A DNA stretch of 64,000 nt from an uncultured Candidatus Saccharibacteria bacterium (GCA_964349945.1 CAYGIH010000001.1:227718-291717); one strand, 5' to 3'; positions 1 through 42,926 are shown, counted from the first letter of the stretch. Numbers and translations: made by a program. Notes: a model not told the origin generated them from the sequence alone.

Positions 1-92
1 AGTAATAGATCTTTTTCTATTTGTGGGTCATTCTCATTTTTATATAGAAGGCCTAAATTCCATGTTGTTTGCTTTTGGTTCATGGTGATGAA

Positions 93-20737: not shown

Positions 20738-20763
20738 TGAAAAAGGACTAGCTGTGCTAGTCC
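20738..20763 (-). terminator. Intrinsic terminator on the minus strand (GGACTAGC-tgt-GCTAGTCC followed by a U-run)
   Basis: Perfect 8-bp stem; on the minus strand it is followed by TTTTTC. Lies downstream of ychF and the GC-rich small ORF. Confidence 0.6.
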
Positions 20764-20975
20764 TGCTTAATTATAGATTTTCTAGCTTTCAAATCTGCTA
20801 GAATTTGTTTTACTCTTGCTCGTTTACCAGCTCGGACAGCTTCTAGCTGTCTTTTTCCTAACCGACGCTTCATGCCAGCAGTAACTAGCCCTATTTCGTA
20901 ATCACACTCCCGAATCTCTTGCCGGAGACGACGAATTTCAGCATACGGACCAGTCCCACTTATTCCGGGTGTCAT
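20757..20975 (-). CDS. GC-rich small ORF (72 aa, very basic); coding status uncertain, could instead be a structured RNA
   Basis: Has a GGAG about 6 nt upstream and a terminator downstream. Codon and GC composition are atypical for this genome, and there is an internal perfect palindrome at 20835..20851. Confidence 0.25.
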   Translation of the reverse strand: MTPGISGTGPYAEIRRLRQEIRECDYEIGLVTAGMKRRLGKRQLEAVRAGKRARVKQILADLKARKSIIKQD

Positions 20976-28644: not shown

Positions 28645-28698
28645 CCGAGTACTATACCATTTAGCAAACAAAAAGCAATACAATCAAGCCTAAATATG

Positions 28699-28769
28699 TG
28701 GACCTAGCGGGAATCGCACCCGCGATTCGTCCATGCCATGGACGCGTGTTACTACTATACTATAGGCCC
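28699..28769 (-). tRNA. tRNA-Ala (anticodon GGC)
   Basis: Cloverleaf with 7-bp acceptor stem carrying the G3:U70 alanine identity pair, anticodon loop AUGGCAU, and a GC-rich T-stem GCGGG/CCCGC. The T-loop UGCGAUU is slightly non-canonical. CCA is not encoded. Confidence 0.6.
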
Positions 28770-28908
28770 AGAATAGCTATTAGCTGATAGCTTTTTAGCT
28801 ATTTAGTTTTAATACTTTATCAAAATAACATTTGAAAATAAATCAATTTCCCTGTATTCTAGTAATTCAGCTAAAAAAGCTAACAACTGAAAGCTGAAAG
28901 CTGTTTTA

Positions 28909-28984
28909 GGGCCCTTAGCTTAGTTGGTAGAGCGCCTCATTTGCAATGAGGAGGTCACCGGTTCGAATCCGGTAGGGTCCACCA
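28909..28984 (+). tRNA. tRNA-Ala (anticodon UGC), CCA encoded
   Basis: GGGCCCU acceptor with G3:U70, D-arm AGCUUAGUUGGUAGAGC, anticodon loop UUUGCAA, T-arm GGUUCGAAUCC, 3' ACCA. Confidence 0.9.
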
Positions 28985-29364
28985 TGACGAGCGTAGTTGA
29001 GAAGTTGTTTGATAAAGAAAACGGGAATTTAGTTGTCCCGTTAGCTCTGTTTATATTGTTTTTTATTCTTAAAGCTTTTGCTGGCTTTTCTGAACTGACT
29101 TCAACAATAATCGCGATATTATTCAGTGCCACCATCTTTAAGGTCAGAATTCATAAAGGTGAATACAAAGTATTTCTGCTTGGTCTATTTATTGGCTCTT
29201 TTATAGAAATTGTTCTCGGCCTAGTATCAAGAAAACAATTCTGGGATGATGCGTCTCTTTTGGGTGTGCCTGCTTGGCTCCCTATTGCTTGGGCTATAGG
29301 TTTTGTAGTCATCACAAGAGTTGGAATGACTATTGAAGGTTTTAAATGGAAAAATGGGGATTAA
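28984..29364 (+). CDS. Hypothetical small membrane protein (about 126 aa from the ATG at 28984)
   Basis: Three or four hydrophobic helices. The longer track ORF begins with TTG inside the tRNA; the ATG overlaps the last tRNA base. Confidence 0.4.
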   Translation: MTSVVEKLFDKENGNLVVPLALFILFFILKAFAGFSELTSTIIAILFSATIFKVRIHKGEYKVFLLGLFIGSFIEIVLGLVSRKQFWDDASLLGVPAWLPIAWAIGFVVITRVGMTIEGFKWKNGD

Positions 29365-29615: not shown

Positions 29616-30608
29616 TTATTTAGTTTCGCGCGCCAGTACGAGTACATGCTCCAAAAATCTCTCAGGACTTGAGCCTATATAATCCAACGATTTATGTAAG
29701 AGCGAATCTTTAGAAAAATCAGGTAAAGCTCCAGTTTCTAAGACATAAACCTTGCCTTGCGGGGTGAGAATCAAATCAGAATATGAATAATGCCTTAAAC
29801 CTAATGCTTCATGGGCCTTCTTAGCTGCATGTTCTAAAATCTTCTTTTCATTAGGAGAGAAACTGGTTTCGTGTAGATATTCATGAACAGAATTAAATTT
29901 TTTATCATAATCAGGCATTAGCTGATTACGTTTTGGGGTAAATACTTCAACAGGAACAAGTGCATAATGTTTTTCTCCTCTAAATCCCTCTATGACTCCA
30001 CATCTAGCTTCCCTACCCCTTATAAATTCTTCAACAATCACTTTTGGAGAATATTCTAAAGCTTCATCAATATATTTGGCTAACTCTTCAAATGTATAAG
30101 CCAATCTAACTCCTCGTCTATAATTCTCACTACTAGGTTTAATTACCAAGGGGTGCATATAATTCCTAAATATTTCCACCAATTTTTCTAATTCTTCTTC
30201 TCCTGTAAGTATTTCAAATCTTGGAGTGAGAAGTCCATAGTTTGAATAAGCATTTTTAGCCAAATCCTTGTTTAGCGCCATAACTGATCCAAGCGCTGTT
30301 GAACCTGTATAAGGTTTGCTCATTGATGCAAGCATTTTTTGAACACTACCCTCATCGGCAAATTTACCTTGAAGTGCATTAAAAGCAATGTCTGCATATT
30401 CAAGAGCCTTATGCGGTGGAACTTTTACTCCCTTTAAATGCCATTCACCATTTTTGGATATAAAAATATCTATTGGTTCATAATTATCAAGTTTTTCTCT
30501 AAGAAGATAAAGTGCATGCTCTCCTGTTTTAAGAGACGCATCATACTCCTCTGAAGGTCCACCACGTAAAACCGCAACCTTAATTTTTGAATTAGAAGAA
30601 ATACCCAT
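29616..30608 (-). CDS. ddl: D-alanine--D-alanine ligase family ATP-grasp enzyme
   Basis: 'KVAVLRGGPSEEYDASLKTGEHAL' Ddl N-terminal domain. ATP-grasp core. 330 aa. Confidence 0.75.
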   Translation of the reverse strand: MGISSNSKIKVAVLRGGPSEEYDASLKTGEHALYLLREKLDNYEPIDIFISKNGEWHLKGVKVPPHKALEYADIAFNALQGKFADEGSVQKMLASMSKPYTGSTALGSVMALNKDLAKNAYSNYGLLTPRFEILTGEEELEKLVEIFRNYMHPLVIKPSSENYRRGVRLAYTFEELAKYIDEALEYSPKVIVEEFIRGREARCGVIEGFRGEKHYALVPVEVFTPKRNQLMPDYDKKFNSVHEYLHETSFSPNEKKILEHAAKKAHEALGLRHYSYSDLILTPQGKVYVLETGALPDFSKDSLLHKSLDYIGSSPERFLEHVLVLARETK

Positions 30609-30615
30609 GAGGAAA

Positions 30616-31809
30616 TTATATCCTAAATCCCTTGCTTCGCAATTTACGGTGATAGGTTATAGCGAACCTATGAGCTTCAGTGTTCGCAAGGAGAATTGAT
30701 TTGCCCCATTTTTCTACAGTACCTTTGAGGCCCAAAATATCTTTAGCTTTATGCCTTTCATCCTTTACTACAGAAACAATTTCGATTAGGAAGCCTCTAT
30801 CTTTCAAAATACTTCTAGCTGCATTAATCTGCGCAGTACTTCCGTCTATGACTATTAAATTTGGAAGAGACCATTCTGCATGACCAAGACGTCGTCTAAT
30901 TATTTCCCTTAAATTCGCTGTATCATCTATACTAACTTTTTTGTTTTGTCCAATTATTTTAAACTTTCTGTATTGATCTTTAGCCAATTCTCCATCTATA
31001 ACTACAGTCATCACCCCAACAGTATCTTTACCTGAAAGATGCGCAATATCAAAAGCCTCTATTCTATATGCGCTTTCATTATTATCTCTTTCTATATCTC
31101 TTCTAATTAGTGCAATATCTTGAATATGCTCTAGAGAGTAGATGGTTCTTTTCAACTGCTCAGCTTGCTCAAACCTTTCTTCTTTGGCCGAAGATTTCAT
31201 CTCTTTCTCTAAATCCTTAATAAGCAAATTTTTTTTGGCTTCAAAAAATAGTTTTATGTATTTAATTCTTTTTTTATATTCCCTTTTGTTCATTAACCCT
31301 GCACAAACTCCAGGACATAGTCCAATTTGTGAGTTGAAACAGGGTTTCTTCATAGTGCATTTGTTATCTCTATATGGGAATATTCGTCTAATTATCTTTA
31401 AAGCTTCTCTTAATTCACTACTATTTGGGAATGGACCGTATGTGCCGTTACCACGAGTTATAAATATTTGAGGAAAGTCTTCGTCGGTGACAGTCACATA
31501 GTTATAACTCTTATCATCTTTCTCTCTCGAATTAAAATACGGTTGATGTTTCTTTATTTGATTAGCTTCCAGAATCAAGGCTTCAAGCACTGATTGAGTT
31601 TGAATAAATTTTATATCTTGAGCCCTTTCTAACATTTGTACTAATCTTGGTCCACGAGTATTCATGAGGTCTCTGGAGAAATAACTTTTCACTCTGTCTC
31701 TCAAACTGGTAGCCTTGCCTATATATAAAATTTCTTTTTTTGGTCCAAAGAAAAAATACACCCCAGGAGCGTCAGGTAATTTGAGTTTTTTATAGCCTTG
31801 ACTGTTCAT
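30616..31809 (-). CDS. uvrC: Excinuclease ABC subunit C (compact UvrC, about 397 aa from the internal ATG)
   Basis: GIY-YIG 'GVYFFFGPKKEILYIGKATSLRDR'. The 59-codon N-terminal extension of the track ORF depends on a GTG start running through a GC-rich island and is probably spurious. Confidence 0.8.
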   Translation of the reverse strand: MNSQGYKKLKLPDAPGVYFFFGPKKEILYIGKATSLRDRVKSYFSRDLMNTRGPRLVQMLERAQDIKFIQTQSVLEALILEANQIKKHQPYFNSREKDDKSYNYVTVTDEDFPQIFITRGNGTYGPFPNSSELREALKIIRRIFPYRDNKCTMKKPCFNSQIGLCPGVCAGLMNKREYKKRIKYIKLFFEAKKNLLIKDLEKEMKSSAKEERFEQAEQLKRTIYSLEHIQDIALIRRDIERDNNESAYRIEAFDIAHLSGKDTVGVMTVVIDGELAKDQYRKFKIIGQNKKVSIDDTANLREIIRRRLGHAEWSLPNLIVIDGSTAQINAARSILKDRGFLIEIVSVVKDERHKAKDILGLKGTVEKWGKSILLANTEAHRFAITYHRKLRSKGFRI

Positions 31810-31864
31810 TATTTCTATCTTACTATCATAAAAGACTAAGCACAAACCCTTTCTGAGAGGCACT

Positions 31865-32038
31865 ATGACTGTCGCCAAGGACGGCCAGAATGGTCCACGA
31901 GCCGAAAGAACTGTTCGTGAACTCGACAAGGAAACTCTCAATTTGCTCAACAGTGCAACTCCTGACAACTCAGCACATGTTGACACAAGAGTGAGGAGCG
32001 ACGGAGTAACCGAAACCAGACCAGCATCGTCTGAGTAG
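31865..32038 (+). CDS. GC-rich small ORF (57 aa, hydrophilic, likely disordered) with SD and terminator; coding status uncertain, RNA alternative
   Basis: GAGAGG lies 5 nt before the ATG. The ORF ends inside the terminator hairpin. Antisense to the flanking genes. Confidence 0.3.
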   Translation: MTVAKDGQNGPRAERTVRELDKETLNLLNSATPDNSAHVDTRVRSDGVTETRPASSE

Positions 32039-32061
32039 CAGAGCTAGCGCTCTGCTTTTTT
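32038..32061 (+). terminator. Intrinsic terminator on the plus strand (GCAGAGC-uagc-GCUCUGC followed by UUUUUU)
   Basis: Perfect 7-bp stem followed by T6 on the plus strand. Overlaps the uvrA stop codon on the opposite strand. Confidence 0.65.
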
Positions 32062-34683
32062 CTTACTCTTTTTTAATATTTTTCTTAGATAAACACCTGT
32101 ATGAGTATCTGTGTTTGCCACTTCTTCCGGTGTCCCACAGGCGACTAATTCCCCACCACTATTTCCACCTTCTGGGCCAATATCTAATACGTAGTCACAA
32201 CTTTTAATAAAATCTAAATTATGTTCAATGACTATAACTGTATTACCTTTGTCTACTAGTATTTGGAGAATTTCTATAAGCTTCTTTACATCCTCATAAT
32301 GAAGTCCAATTGTTGGCTCGTCCAAAATATATATGGTTTTTTGATGTTGAGGACGATAAAGCTCCGAAGCAATCTTCACTCGTTGAGCCTCTCCACCAGA
32401 GAGAGTGGTGGCTGACTGACCGAGTTTTAAATAGCCTAGCCCCACATCACTCATACATTTTAATCTGTCATAGATAGCAGGTATATCCTCATAGAAAGTC
32501 TGTGCCTCCTCAACTGTCATTTCCAATACCTGAAATATATTTTTCTTTTTATATTCAACCTCTAACGTCTCTTTCATAAACCTCTTACCCTTACAGACAT
32601 CACAAGGCACATAAACAGTAGGAAGAAAATGCATTTCAACTTCAATCATCCCATTGCCTTGACATGTCTCACATCTACCACCCTTCACATTGAACGAAAA
32701 TCTATTAGCCTTCCATCCACGTGCACGTGCTTCTGTAGACTCAGCGAACAAATCACGAATAAAAGTAAACGCTCCAGTATATGTGGCTGGATTACTTCGA
32801 GGAGTTCGACCGATTGGAGATTGATCAATCATAATCGCTCTCCCCAGATACTCACTGCCAGTGAAAGATTGTGCATTGTATGTTTCTGCACTTCTATATC
32901 TCTTCTCTAATCGTGCTTGTAGATTTTTATATAAAATTTCATAAACAAAAGAAGATTTACCTGAGCCTGACACTCCGGTGACTGCAATTAGACGATTTAA
33001 AGGAATGTCCACATTCAAGTGCTTAATGTTGAATATTTTTCCAGCGCGAATTTTTATTTCCCCCTTCTCACCTGTTCTACGTACTTCTGGGGTTTCAATT
33101 TTTGTTTCCTCTCGCAGATATGAAAGTGTGAGCGACTTTGAATCATTTTTCTTGGCAGTAAGTAAGGTGTCCAAATAGTCAGCCACCACCACGTGTCCTC
33201 CATGAGTACCTGCACCTGGACCTATATCTACAATATAATCAGAAGAGTAAATTGTATCTTCATCATGCTCAACAATGAGTATGGTGTTTCCTAAATCACG
33301 TAGTTCATGGAGAGTTTTAATAAGCCTATCATTATCTCTACTGTGTAGTCCTATCGTTGGCTCATCGAGCACATAAAGTGCTCCCACGAGCCCAGAACCG
33401 AGCTGAGATGCAAGTCTAATGCGCTGTGCTTCTCCACCCGAGAGAGTGTGCGCCCGTCTATCTAGGGTCAAATAATCAATGCCTACATTCAACATAAATT
33501 CTAATCTGGCCTCAATTTCTTTGGTCACCACCTTAGAAATATTCTTCTCTCTAATTGTTAATTTAAGTTTCTTAAAGAATTCATTTGCATCATGAATAGA
33601 CAGAGACACTAATTCAACAATATTCTTGCCACCAATCAAAACATGCAGAGCCTCTTCTCTGAGTCTCTTACCTTTACACTTTTCACACGGAGTACTACCA
33701 AACAAATATTTTGTCCCTAGACCATTACATTCTGGACATGCTCCGTAAGGAGAATTAAATGAGAACAAACGAGGTTCAATTTCTGGGAAGGAGAAACCGT
33801 CTTTTGGACAAGCCCACTTCGCAGACATAAGGAATTCTTCTGCTTCTTTTTGTTCTTTTTTTGGTTTCTGTTCATTAGCCAAATCTCTAAATCTCACTAC
33901 CAAAAGTCCATCTGATTCATGAATAGCTTTCTCTATTGCTTCACTCAACCTTTCGTTGGCAGTTTTCTCATCTGTCTTAAACTCATTCAAACTAATCGAA
34001 TCAACCAATACTGATATGTTGTGCACTTTGGTTTTAGTTAAAACAATTCTCTCTCGCAGTTTTTTTCTTTCTCCATCGACTAATACTTCTGTGTAACCCT
34101 TACCTAATAAGTCATACAAAAGTTGATAGTATTCCCCTTTTCTCCCTCTTACTATTGGAGAATATATTTCCACATAAACAGGCAATTCAAGTTTTTTATT
34201 TTTTGGTTTACTGGATTCATATTCACCAATTTTCTCCAATACAAAAGTTTTTATTTCTTCGTTAGAAAGTTTTTTTATCTCACTTCCGCACACCAAACAA
34301 TGTGGTCGACCAATGCGTGCATACAAAATTCTTAGATAGTCATAAATTTCTGTGATAGTAGCAACTGTTGAGCGTGGATTATTAGAACGAGATTTTTGAT
34401 CAATCGAAATGGCTGGTGAAAGACCACTAATCTCATCTACATCTGGCTTTTGCATTTGCTTCAAAAACTGACGAGCATATGAAGAAAGTGATTCTACATA
34501 ACGCCTTTGTCCCTCGGCAAAAATAGTGTCGAAGGCCAAGGAAGACTTGCCCGAACCAGAAAGTCCAGTGAATACAGTCATTTTGTTGCGTGGCATCTCC
34601 ACACTTAAGTTCTTTAAATTGTGTGTTCGAGCGCCCTTCACTATAATTTTATCTTCTTTGTTTTTATTTTTGTTTTTATCCAT
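32044..34683 (-). CDS. uvrA: Excinuclease ABC subunit A
   Basis: Two ABC modules ('[10 protein letters not shown]', 'GVSGSGKSS') with zinc-finger Cys clusters. 879 aa. Confidence 0.95.
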
Positions 34684-34769
34684 ATACTCAAATTCCCCAC
34701 GGTTTGGCCCATGGGGTTTGACACGAACGGATTATATCATCCTAAATAATTCTTATCCACTTTTTTCTA

Positions 34770-35127
34770 TATAAATAAAAATTACACGTGATATTTTAAA
34801 TAAGGGTCAGTTCCTTGTTAAACCTTAAAGCACTGGGCCATGCTAACCTTCGCAGAGTTCAAGCAGAGGAGCTGCACGGAAAAAATTCCATATGCAAGAC
34901 GTGGAATTGCATGGGCTGAGGCACAGAGACTCGGAGAGGGAAACCAAGTCTATGAATGTCTCTTTCACAAACACTATCATGTTGGTCGGCCTGCATCGAA
35001 GCAGATAATTAGGCGCATGTTACTCAAGCTTTTGGTTTTTCGTGAAGTAGAGAGAAAGAGAAGGCACCATCGCAGGATGCGCTTTCTCAATCGTCCTGGT
35101 GCACGCAGGCAACACTTCAATTACCGC
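34770..35127 (+). ncRNA. Candidate structured RNA or foreign mini-gene: GC-rich island between uvrA and uvrB ending in a plus-strand terminator; class unassigned
   Basis: About 50% GC against an AT-rich background. Contains a 98-aa Arg-rich ORF (34840..35136) with no SD, typical of translating a structured RNA. Antisense to both flanking genes. Confidence 0.3.
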
Positions 35128-35156
35128 GCAGCCTAGATATTGGGCTGCTTTTTCTT
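35128..35156 (+). terminator. Intrinsic terminator on the plus strand (GCAGCC-loop-GGCUGC followed by a U-run)
   Basis: 6-bp GC stem with an 8-nt loop, followed by TTTTTCTTTTC. The uvrB stop codon lies inside it on the opposite strand. Confidence 0.6.
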
Positions 35157-37166
35157 TTCTAATTTTGCTTCGAGCATTCTGATTTCATCCCTTATAAGTG
35201 CTGCTGTTTCAAAGTCTAAATCTTTCACCGCTTCTTCCATTTCTTGCCTCTTCACTTTTATAAATTTCTTTGGATTTTTATTAAACAAAGCTTCATCAGT
35301 TTCCATGAGCAATCCAACAGCATTATGATGTTCTCGCTCAAGGGTGTCTGTAATATCTTTAATTTTCTTTTTGATACTAATCGGAGTGATGTTGTGCTTT
35401 TTGTTGTAGGCCATTTGTATTTTCCTTCTTCGAAGCGTCTCACTCATTGCTCTTTCTATAGATCCAGTGACATTGTCCGCATAGAGAATTACTTTGCCCT
35501 CAAGGTTTCTGGCTGCACGACCAATAATTTGAATCAATGATGTTTCTGAACGAAGAAAACCTTCTTTGTCTGCATCAAGTATTCCTATGAAAGTCACTTC
35601 AGGAAGATCTAACCCCTCTCGTAGAAGATTCACTCCAACCAAACAGTCAAACGTGCCCTTTCTAAATTCTGTAAGGATCTCTATGCGTTCTATGGTTTTT
35701 ATCTCACTATGTAAATACCTTGCCTTTATCTTTTTCTCCTTTAGGTATTCAGCCAAATCTTCGGCCATTTTCTTAGTCAGAGTAGTAGCTATCACTCGTC
35801 CACCTTTCTTAATAGCTTTTTCTGTTTCTTCTATGAAGTCTTTCACTTGCCCTTCATACTTACCTTTGCTCTGTATTGGGCGAACTGTCACTTCTGGATC
35901 AATAAGACCGGTTGGACGAATCACCTGCTCCACCAATTCCCCACTATGTTCTAGTTCAAATTTTCCTGGAGTAGCGCTGGTAAATATTATCTGGCCGACT
36001 CTTTCCTTAAATTCTTCTATCCTAAGAGGTCTATTGTCTCTAGCACTAGGTAATCTAAAACCATGTTCAATAAGAGTATCTTTTCTGGATTTATCTCCCG
36101 CATACATACCTCCGATTTGCGGGAGTGAGACGTGGGACTCATCAATGATAGTCAAAAAATCTGGTGTACCATCTAGTTTATGAGGAAAATATGAAAGCAA
36201 AGTGTCTGGAGCTTCCCCAGGTCTTCTGTTTGAAAAAAGCCTGGAATAATTTTCTATCCCATTGCAATAACCCACCTCTCGAATAAGTGCGAGGTCATAA
36301 GAAGTTCTGCGCTTTAATCTTTCAGCTTCGAGTAACTTCCCTTCTTTTTTGAATTTTTCTAATTGTTCTTCTAGTTCTAATTTGATTTTTTGTATTGCTT
36401 TCTTGTTTGTATCATCATTAGTGATGAAGTGCTTCGCAGGGAAAAGGAAAAATGAATCTGGTTCACTAATAATTGTTCGACTGACAGCATCAATACGTTT
36501 TATAGATTTGATTTGTCCTTCTTCTAATTCAATTCTATAAATTATCCTTTCTCCTGTGGGCATTATCTCTACTGCATTACCTAAAGCCCTAAATGTCCCT
36601 GGCTTCACATCAGCATTTGTTCTAGAAAAATGAATATCTATAAGATCGCGTATAAAATCAGCACGACTAAGTTTGTCCCCTTTCACTATCTTCATGTTCA
36701 CCCTCTCATATTCTGCTGGAGAACCAAGGCCATAAATACAAGATACAGAAGCTACAATTATTACGTCCTTCCTAGTAAGTAAGGCTTGGGTCGAAGCATG
36801 ACGAAGTCTATCTATCTCTTCATTAATCATCGCCTCCTTCTCAATATAAGTATCTGTGACCGGCATATAAGCCTCTGGCTGATAGTAGTCATAGTAAGAC
36901 ACGAAGTAGTGCACTGCATTGTCTGGGAAGAATTCTCGATATTCTTGGGCTAACTGTGCCGCAAGGGTTTTGTTGTGCGCAATGACCAAGGTTGGCTTAC
37001 CAATTTTCTCTATCACATTCGCCGCGGTGAAAGTCTTTCCAGAACCAGTCACGCCCAAAAGAGTTTGATATCGTTTACCTTTCCTTAGTCCTTCGACCAA
37101 CTCTTTGATCGCTTTTGGTTGGTCTCCAGCTGGTTTAAAGTCATTTTTTATCTTAAAAACTGTCAT
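35133..37166 (-). CDS. uvrB: Excinuclease ABC subunit B
   Basis: 'LLGVTGSGKTFT' Walker A, helicase motifs, C-terminal UVR domain ('ALIRDEIRMLEAKL'). Confidence 0.95.
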   Translation of the reverse strand: MTVFKIKNDFKPAGDQPKAIKELVEGLRKGKRYQTLLGVTGSGKTFTAANVIEKIGKPTLVIAHNKTLAAQLAQEYREFFPDNAVHYFVSYYDYYQPEAYMPVTDTYIEKEAMINEEIDRLRHASTQALLTRKDVIIVASVSCIYGLGSPAEYERVNMKIVKGDKLSRADFIRDLIDIHFSRTNADVKPGTFRALGNAVEIMPTGERIIYRIELEEGQIKSIKRIDAVSRTIISEPDSFFLFPAKHFITNDDTNKKAIQKIKLELEEQLEKFKKEGKLLEAERLKRRTSYDLALIREVGYCNGIENYSRLFSNRRPGEAPDTLLSYFPHKLDGTPDFLTIIDESHVSLPQIGGMYAGDKSRKDTLIEHGFRLPSARDNRPLRIEEFKERVGQIIFTSATPGKFELEHSGELVEQVIRPTGLIDPEVTVRPIQSKGKYEGQVKDFIEETEKAIKKGGRVIATTLTKKMAEDLAEYLKEKKIKARYLHSEIKTIERIEILTEFRKGTFDCLVGVNLLREGLDLPEVTFIGILDADKEGFLRSETSLIQIIGRAARNLEGKVILYADNVTGSIERAMSETLRRRKIQMAYNKKHNITPISIKKKIKDITDTLEREHHNAVGLLMETDEALFNKNPKKFIKVKRQEMEEAVKDLDFETAALIRDEIRMLEAKLEKKKQPNI

Positions 37167-42619: not shown

Positions 42620-42628
42620 AAGTAATAA

Positions 42629-42840
42629 GCGCCCACTCGTGAGAGGGGCGCTGCAATAATAATAATTATGTGTGTCAGTGACCGAAGTCACAGAAAGAGC
42701 GAGTGGTAGTGCGGTGTTCGCTGACACCGCACTACCCGGCGACCCATCGACTATACTTCAGTCCGCGCCTAGGCGTAATGCTACTACGGCTGGCCATGAG
42801 AGGGTCACCGAAACCATCCAAGTGAGGTAATTTTCACCCC
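42629..42840. ncRNA. Candidate structured RNA: GC-rich, hairpin-dense intergenic region between convergent fmt and hpf; class unassigned
   Basis: GCGCCC...GGGCGC hairpin (42629..42651). Perfect 12-bp hairpin GTAGTGCGGTGT-ucgcug-ACACCGCACTAC (42706..42735). GC far above background; no ORF. Confidence 0.3.
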
Positions 42841-42926
42841 ACTCCTCAAGTATACACCTTTCATGGGTTTTGTCAAGCACTTCTATTGATATGTGAAAAT
42901 AGGCCTATTTTGAGCCATTTTACAGA

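Follow-up and report, generated by a model that had tools for sequence, protein, structure and literature searches.

The spacer between uvrA and uvrC in the window (i.e., the whole 64,000-nt stretch of DNA that was analysed) is likely to house a compact, independently expressed gene for a 57-aa protein, termed p57, which would have been inserted antisense, in a CPR bacterium of the Paceibacteria/Minisyncoccia type, between uvrA and uvrC genes that were tightly joined in the ancestral state. In the model that we favour, a sigma-70-type promoter (TTGACT-17-TACTAT), whose -35 box coincides with uvrC codons 2-4, would drive the synthesis of a ~230-nt mRNA comprising a 32-nt leader, a Shine-Dalgarno (SD) sequence GAGAGG and a 57-codon open reading frame (ORF), and transcription would end at a terminator with the uvrA stop codon in its loop. 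Sister lineages carry other small hydrophilic ORFs in the same slot, some of them tied to p57 via shared modules and others unrelated to it.

Results

The uvrA-uvrC spacer and its features

Proteins encoded in the window matched MAG proteins labelled Minisyncoccia, Paceibacterota or Parcubacteria, i.e., CPR/Patescibacteria. The spacer (hereafter also the island) has core housekeeping genes as neighbours, namely uvrB, uvrA, uvrC, ddl, mreB, tgt, priA, def and fmt. The features of the locus are as follows.

29616-30608, minus strand: ddl
30616..31809, minus strand: uvrC, 397 aa; start codon ATG at 31807-31809 (CAT on the plus strand); its first codons supply the -35 box of the small gene
31798..31803, plus strand: -35 box TTGACT from the promoter scan, corresponding to uvrC codons 2-4 (N-S-Q) read from the opposite strand
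31817..31845, minus strand: predicted uvrC promoter; -35 box TTGTGC (31845 to 31840), 17-nt spacer, -10 box TAAGAT (31822 to 31817)
31821..31826, plus strand: -10 box TACTAT from the promoter scan, after a 17-nt spacer; predicted transcription start at ~31833
31833..31864, plus strand: predicted 5' UTR of ~32 nt; SD sequence GAGAGG at 31855-31860
31865..32038, plus strand: p57 coding sequence, 57 codons, MTVAKDGQNGPRAERTVRELDKETLNLLNSATPDNSAHVDTRVRSDGVTETRPASSE; ATG at 31865-31867, TAG at 32036-32038 included; peptide segments ELDKETLNLLNSATPDNSAHVDTR and SDGVTETRPASSE
32037 to ~32061/32062, plus strand: predicted intrinsic terminator; 8-bp stem AGCAGAGC/GCTCTGCT, loop TAGC, T-run
32044..34683, minus strand: uvrA, 879 aa, flanking the spacer; its stop codon at 32044-32046 (CTA on the plus strand) lies within the terminator of the small gene
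35133-37166, minus strand: uvrB

From the uvrC start to the uvrA stop, the spacer spans 31810-32043 (234 nt). Its GC content was 0.474 (0.47), compared with a window mean of 0.373 (0.37), and values that high were reached by only 0.8% of 234-nt windows across the 64 kb. This agrees with the GC-rich segment of ~230 bp described between uvrC and uvrA in the initial annotation, and the GAGAGG motif, the ATG at 31865, the 57-codon ORF and the perfect plus-strand terminator reported there were likewise all recovered in place. With a view to the attC-like imperfect inverted repeats that delimit integron-type gene cassettes, a repeat search of the 64-kb window revealed no paralogue or repeat touching the island, and the corresponding borders in relatives were examined by eye. 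There was no integrase among the genes neighbouring the island, and the site is not marked by a tRNA or by repeats.

In AT-rich genomes, GC-rich islands are a classical signature of structured RNA genes, and the composition of the spacer (GC 0.47 vs. 0.37, within the top 0.8% of windows) would fit a structured non-coding RNA or cis-regulatory element on either strand. However, Rfam searches at the gathering threshold and at E values up to 10 returned tRNAs elsewhere and chance-level snoRNA matches but no family for the island, and the fold stability of its RNA was not in excess of that of shuffled sequences (MFE z -0.9 on the plus and 0.0 on the minus strand). Moreover, substitutions were codon-periodic rather than pair-covarying. 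A terminator-like hairpin on the minus strand (32034-32016), which falls within the p57 C-terminal codons, was also rejected because it is lost in L003, the closest homologue, although the amino acids there are kept. A structured RNA is thus a highly improbable explanation of the island.

The start of uvrC

A GTG-started uvrC ORF in the annotation track (GTG at 31986, 456 aa) crosses the island with an extension of 59 codons. Were this the true gene, the island would be the 5' part of uvrC and UvrC would have a longer N-terminus, a reading which has in its favour that the frame in the window is open for 78 codons upstream of the ATG. In 11 relatives, however, the same frame was open for only 0-44 codons upstream, and in L003 the stretch is interrupted by a stop. 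Furthermore, the spacer cannot be aligned among relatives with 82-89% identical UvrC, and many relatives have no spacer. UvrC begins with M(N/K/R)SQ, just before the GIY-YIG region, in all relatives, and two independent gene calls gave a UvrC of 397 aa. A conserved extension of the UvrC N-terminus upstream of GIY-YIG was looked for in homologous genomes and not found. We therefore agree with the initial annotation, which had suspected the GTG-started extension of being an artefact and had taken the ATG at 31807-31809 to be the real uvrC start, and we give next to no credence to the island as uvrC coding sequence.

The uvrA-uvrC junction in related bacteria

Approximately 170 loci were collected around UvrC homologues, and uvrA was directly upstream of uvrC in 107 of these. 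The gap between the two genes was <150 nt in 40 loci (often 0-10 nt, as in many Parcubacteria) and 150-2800 nt in 67. Given that uvrA and uvrC abut in many relatives, the island represents an insertion. In tight-junction relatives, the UvrA C-terminus reads ...YLKKVLKK, whereas UvrA of the window adds a 7-aa tail, SKKKAER (32047-32067, minus strand), derived from the terminator T-run and 3' stem. Such a terminator-encoded 7-aa tail was found only in insert-bearing relatives and was absent from tight-junction relatives. Taken together, the UvrA tail and the tight gaps point to an ancestral tight uvrA-uvrC pair into which a module was inserted at the uvrA stop. The ancestral pair was probably translationally coupled.

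Predicted promoters and terminator

The predicted plus-strand promoter of the small gene scores 9/12. In 14 aligned loci, TTGACT and positions 1, 2 and 6 of the -10 box (T, A and T) are invariant and their spacing is constant, and the pattern TTGAYW-16..18-TAnnnT was present at this position in 26/67 insert-bearing loci vs. 0/40 tight-junction loci. By its hexamers, their spacing and the conserved key positions, this element qualifies as a predicted sigma-70-type promoter. The start codon lies 30-40 nt past the -10 box in ten close relatives. At the equivalent position, nine of the ten have a GGAG/GAGG-type SD 4-8 nt 5' of the start, the exception being L084 with a weak TGAG; in the window, only 4 nt separate the SD from the ATG, which is a short distance.

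At the 3' end of the small gene, positions 32037-32044 pair with 32049-32056 over 8 perfect bp, five of them G-C pairs, around a loop at 32045-32048, and the hairpin is followed by T6. Terminator-like sites in the 900 nt scanned numbered three, compared with 0.6 expected. In 14/14 loci, the slot closes at its 3' end with a hairpin and T-run; the stems differ, notably in the more distant loci. The hairpin has the attributes of an intrinsic (Rho-independent) terminator, and would be unidirectional since no U-tract follows it on the minus strand. The uvrA stop codon, which had been placed inside the stem, does overlap the hairpin but runs from the last base of the stem into the loop, and is therefore not wholly within the stem. 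Nevertheless, the independent plus-strand unit of SD, ATG and terminator that the initial annotation proposed is upheld, in that the promoter, the SD-start position and the hairpin with its T-run are kept in 14 related loci.

On the opposite strand, the predicted uvrC promoter matches the consensus at 7/12 and falls below the threshold of a generic promoter scan. In the 14-locus alignment, the plus-strand CAA (i.e., the minus-strand TTG, 31845 to 31843) is invariant, the minus-strand TA..AT is invariant or nearly so at constant spacing, and the -10 box ends exactly 7 nt ahead of the ATG in all 14 aligned sequences. The pattern TTGnnn-16..18-TAnnnT-5..9-ATG occurred in 22/55 non-redundant insert loci vs. 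1/34 tight loci. No SD is present at the uvrC start, and the location of the -10 box 7 nt before the ATG implies that the uvrC mRNA would be leaderless. The -10 boxes on the two strands share the TA at 31821-31822, such that RNA polymerase could occupy only one promoter at once. From these features we infer that the block likely contains overlapping back-to-back promoters, one for the small gene and one for a leaderless uvrC mRNA. As the more tentative part of our model, the same 60-bp block would also fire the opposite-strand promoter to yield this leaderless mRNA, and the promoter pair would replace the uvrA-uvrC coupling that the insertion broke. Binding of polymerase to the uvrC promoter would preclude its binding to that of the small gene and vice versa, and the small-gene transcript would be convergent with any uvrA read-through.

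The p57 protein family

An open frame of 57 codons is by itself not significant here (P ~0.07), and the significance of the ORF thus rests on comparison with relatives. To find relatives of p57, 5.8 billion protein clusters were searched with a word index, 1.84 billion representatives were scanned exhaustively with HMMER, and a second profile search was run. Five homologues, all from CPR/Patescibacteria, were identified among ~15 billion predicted proteins: the word-indexed search yielded P0001 (labelled by NCBI as hypothetical protein WAV25_02605), the HMMER scan added P0122, P0123 and P0126, and the second profile search P0128. All five are encoded antisense between uvrC and uvrA, and p57 is retained where UvrC identity to that of the window falls to 60-62%. 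The four full-length members are 53-59 aa long, with start, stop and length retained, and share the pattern M-x-x-A-x-DG...P(R/K)...REL..E...VD-x-R....G..ETRPA-x-SE.

Between the p57 sequences of the window and L003, differences at codon positions 1, 2 and 3 numbered 16, 11 and 30, respectively, with 22 codons showing synonymous differences only and 18 non-synonymous ones. Among the synonymous switches, some of them multi-nucleotide, were TCT to AGC (Ser) and AGA to CGA (Arg). For this pair, pS was 0.70 and pN 0.21 (dN/dS ~0.12, an estimate from a family of only six members with saturated synonymous sites), and pS in the flanking genes was 0.55-0.67. All six full-length p57 pairs exhibited pS values of 0.70-0.87 (saturated) and pN values of 0.21-0.43. 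As neutral DNA so diverged would not align, these data argue for selection on the p57 amino-acid sequence. Part of the codon periodicity is not strand-specific, since the antisense frame with shared wobble positions kept 63% amino-acid identity between the window and L003; in L003, however, this frame is interrupted by a stop, and in the other relatives it is closed. Finally, the ORF was open from the SD-linked start to within a few nt of the terminator in ten relatives (Fisher p 7e-5, one per family). Overall, these comparisons favour the ORF being a real protein gene, with the amino-acid sequence of p57 under purifying selection.

With a GRAVY of -1.02 and a pI of 5.3, p57 is hydrophilic, as had been noted initially. 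It was also said to be of low complexity, but this did not hold, as the protein uses 15 residue types and has an entropy of 3.7 bits. The atypical, GC-rich codon usage attributed to the ORF was borne out by a GC3 of 0.46 vs. 0.28-0.33 for uvrA, uvrB and uvrC. An AlphaFold model of p57, of low confidence (pLDDT 68, pTM 0.26), contained a helix at ~17-31, a beta-hairpin at 39-43/49-53 and an acidic tail. Neither p57 nor p98 nor any of nine slot ORFs had a significant match in Pfam, PADLOC or PHROGs, and no relative of p57 was detected in the PDB, either by sequence profile or by Foldseek with the low-confidence AF2 model. Similarly, no p57 relative was found in a scan of IMG/VR viral contigs, no second copy was found by tblastn within the 64 kb, and a metagenome scan using a two-sequence p57 alignment, the N-terminal patterns of which were poor, gave no match. 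A search of the literature on CPR small proteins or hypervariable loci yielded nothing relevant. Judged from these comparisons, p57 is a new orphan small-protein family, tiny, not described before and known only from this slot. Our best guess is that this 6.2-kDa protein, which is predicted to be soluble, is an accessory binding protein that works in trans; any link to nucleotide excision repair seems doubtful to us.

Variation of the slot among relatives

The window, L003, L004, L083, L084, L164 and L166 have UvrC proteins that are mutually 82-89% identical, and the promoter block is common to all. Within this genus-level clade, the slot contains ORFs of at least five families, given here with those from beyond the clade.

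Family A (p57): window and L003
Family B: L084 and L166
Family C: L164
Family D: L083
Family H: L004
Beyond the clade: family E, L085; family F, L167; family G, L005

Several observations speak for exchange over gradual divergence. Nucleotide identity in the flanks is 74-88%, but no alignment is obtained for the spacer bodies. The first 39 nt and the last 28 nt of the spacer in the window match L084 at 92% and 100%, respectively. In the window, an L003-like ORF is combined with a 3' end and a UvrA tail that resemble those of L084, which points to recombination inside the spacer.

Several slot ORFs share modules. The ORF of L171 joins a C-type N-terminus (z 13.8) to a p57 C-terminus, that of family E shares LAAERPSGL(L/I)PP with L168 and L170 (z 9.3), and that of family G shares SxEEIAxGxSGLL with L171. 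A second ORF of 49 aa (MKRSDWFELYMILVH..GNGQTLVDG) lies 1-2 codons after the p57-type ORF in L003 (3618-3764, minus strand) and L171 (3693-3839, plus strand), the two copies being 69% identical. The only slot ORF of L004 is distantly related to this 49-aa ORF, which the window does not have. L097 and L020, with UvrC proteins that are 97% identical, have spacers of 421 and 786 nt, respectively. Their first ORFs differ, one product being a hydrophobic peptide of 59 aa and the other a Cys-rich, zinc-ribbon-like protein of 70 aa. The two spacers have in common a 142-nt module, 97% identical but at different positions, and their flanks are ~88% identical; this suggests a recent exchange of spacer modules.

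A p57-family HMM gave no significant match to the other slot ORFs (families B-H), and we therefore do not claim homology of all slot ORFs. Sub-threshold similarities between p57 and these ORFs were weak, and pairwise tests showed shared modules for families C, E and G. In view of the weak similarities, some of the families deemed unrelated may be extremely diverged homologues and not replacements. Replacement is favoured, however, because p57 is kept down to 60% UvrC identity and yet is absent from lineages with 82-89% identical UvrC. The fluidity of the slot most likely stems from recombination, both inside the spacer and around it. Apart from L005, in which the two are equal (0.55), the GC3 of each slot ORF exceeds that of the host uvrC. 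The raised GC3 could reflect the avoidance of stop codons, which are AT-rich, a foreign origin or, if the slot is a hot spot of recombination, biased gene conversion.

An alternative reading of this turnover is that the ORF is recently acquired or decaying foreign or junk DNA, i.e., a functionless proto-gene or pseudogene that is transcribed via the slot signals. This would be consistent with its atypical codons (GC3 0.46 vs. 0.28), the fast change of ORFs in the slot, the absence of a detectable domain in an orphan family, and the occurrence in L003 and L171 of a second ORF that is missing from the window. We nevertheless consider it very unlikely, given that purifying selection was seen in six out of six full-length pairs, that start, stop and length (53-59 aa) are retained, and that lineages whose UvrC is 60% identical have kept the motifs REL..E and VDxR....G..ETRPAxSE.

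Alternatively, the product might be a non-coding antisense RNA, or antisense transcription itself might act in cis on uvrA-uvrC read-through or on the uvrC promoter, with the ORF being incidental or held open only to protect the RNA. The transcript would be fully complementary to any uvrA-to-uvrC read-through RNA. Across the clade, conservation is higher for the promoter block, the position of the start and the terminator than for the ORF body, and ORF content varies among close relatives. Against this reading, p57 amino acids are conserved when synonymous sites are saturated, with multi-nucleotide synonymous switches, and the family persists to 60% UvrC identity. The SD and start codon are also conserved, and there is neither an Rfam match nor excess folding. 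We attach little likelihood to an RNA product; a cis effect may exist alongside the protein product, but cannot be the sole constraint.

Discussion

We favour the reading that the island carries a protein-coding gene with its own expression signals, an arrangement for which there are several partial precedents. Phage morons are autonomous transcription units that lie, as insertions, between conserved genes of a phage (PMC3594210). Like these, the island is extra DNA between genes that abut in relatives, has its own predicted promoter and factor-independent terminator, deviates in GC content from its neighbours and harbours a small gene of accessory character. Unlike morons, however, it resides in a core CPR chromosome and not in a phage or prophage, and it has no relative in IMG/VR or PHROGs. 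The promoter and terminator are, furthermore, fixed and interlocked with the flanking genes, only the ORF between them changing among relatives. In view of the chromosomal setting and the absence of viral relatives, we describe the island as moron-like and not as a moron.

Hot spots of accessory-gene turnover that are flanked by core genes are an established concept in comparative genomics. The slot is similar to these in that its flanks are conserved and its content is variable, with mosaic and incongruent segments. It differs in being a miniature of 170-800 bp with one or two ORFs of 37-104 aa, in having no integrase, tRNA or repeats, and in that the expression signals are common to all alleles. 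The predicted promoters are arranged in the manner of back-to-back promoters, each -35 box lying within the transcribed region of the other unit and the opposite -10 boxes sharing a TA. The geometry at uvrC (-10 box 7 nt before the ATG, no SD) would be in keeping with a leaderless mRNA, as predicted here from sequence.

A fixed "expression socket" may be envisaged, in which a terminator and two interlocked back-to-back promoters, made in part of coding sequence from the essential genes on either side, receive mosaic small-protein alleles. These would be swapped between lineages by recombination, under diversifying selection, and transcription of the locus would compete directly with that of a leaderless uvrC. 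We rate this scenario as unlikely; if it were true, the slot would be a polymorphic small-protein locus involved, for example, in phage conflict or host-cell interaction.

In common with type I and type II toxin-antitoxin systems, the slot has small ORFs that are antisense to neighbouring genes, and L003 and L171 each have two tandem ORFs. In contrast to such systems, the window has a single hydrophilic ORF (GRAVY -1.0), no hydrophobic toxin-like peptide and no partner gene. A toxin-antitoxin component or small anti-phage defence protein was hence rejected as a candidate, there being a single hydrophilic ORF and no Pfam or PADLOC match.

To our knowledge, the small proteins of CPR/Patescibacteria are almost unexplored. 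The p57 ORF was missed by the gene caller of the source contig and lay hidden under the spurious 59-codon extension of uvrC, and the annotation of the contig can now be amended by correcting the uvrC start and adding one gene. As a family, p57 is an orphan defined by position and not by similarity. The locus would also illustrate how an antisense insertion with its own promoter pair and terminator can split a core operon, and how very rapidly small, mosaic ORFs can turn over while their expression context stays fixed. The predicted competition between the two promoters is concrete and testable.

Other features of the window

The uvrB-uvrA spacer (34684-35160), described as a first island in the initial annotation, contains a 98-aa plus-strand ORF (34840-35136) with a very basic product (pI 11.5). 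The TAG of this ORF and the uvrB stop overlap, forming a CTAG palindrome (35133-35136), and the ORF ends in a hairpin, GCAGCC..GGCTGC, and a T-run. Fast-diverging homologues of the 98-aa protein occur in L003 and L004 (~31-39% identity), with a shared Cys/His motif, SCT.K...Y.C.C.RPD.P..EH(Y/W)H(V/Y)G. L003 is 93% identical to the window over the 123 nt beside the uvrA start, which include an inverted repeat, CCCCACGG..CCATGGGG.

A 307-nt spacer at 42620-42926 (GC 0.48), situated between fmt-like and ribosome-hibernation-factor-like genes, is dense in strong hairpins, e.g., GCGCCCACTCGTGAGAGGGGCGC and GGTAGTGCGGTG..CACCGCACTACC. It had no Rfam match at the gathering threshold, and looks like a candidate structured RNA. 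At 20757-20975 (minus strand), a somewhat GC-richer spacer contains a 72-aa basic ORF on the strand of its neighbours, with GC1/2/3 values of 0.60/0.46/0.29; this is probably another unannotated small protein gene. Lastly, two tRNA-Ala genes at 28698-28984, GGC (minus strand) and TGC (plus strand), face away from each other. Mechanically called ORFs at 28920-29135 and 28924-29364 overlap the second of these tRNA genes, and their 5' parts are therefore probably spurious.
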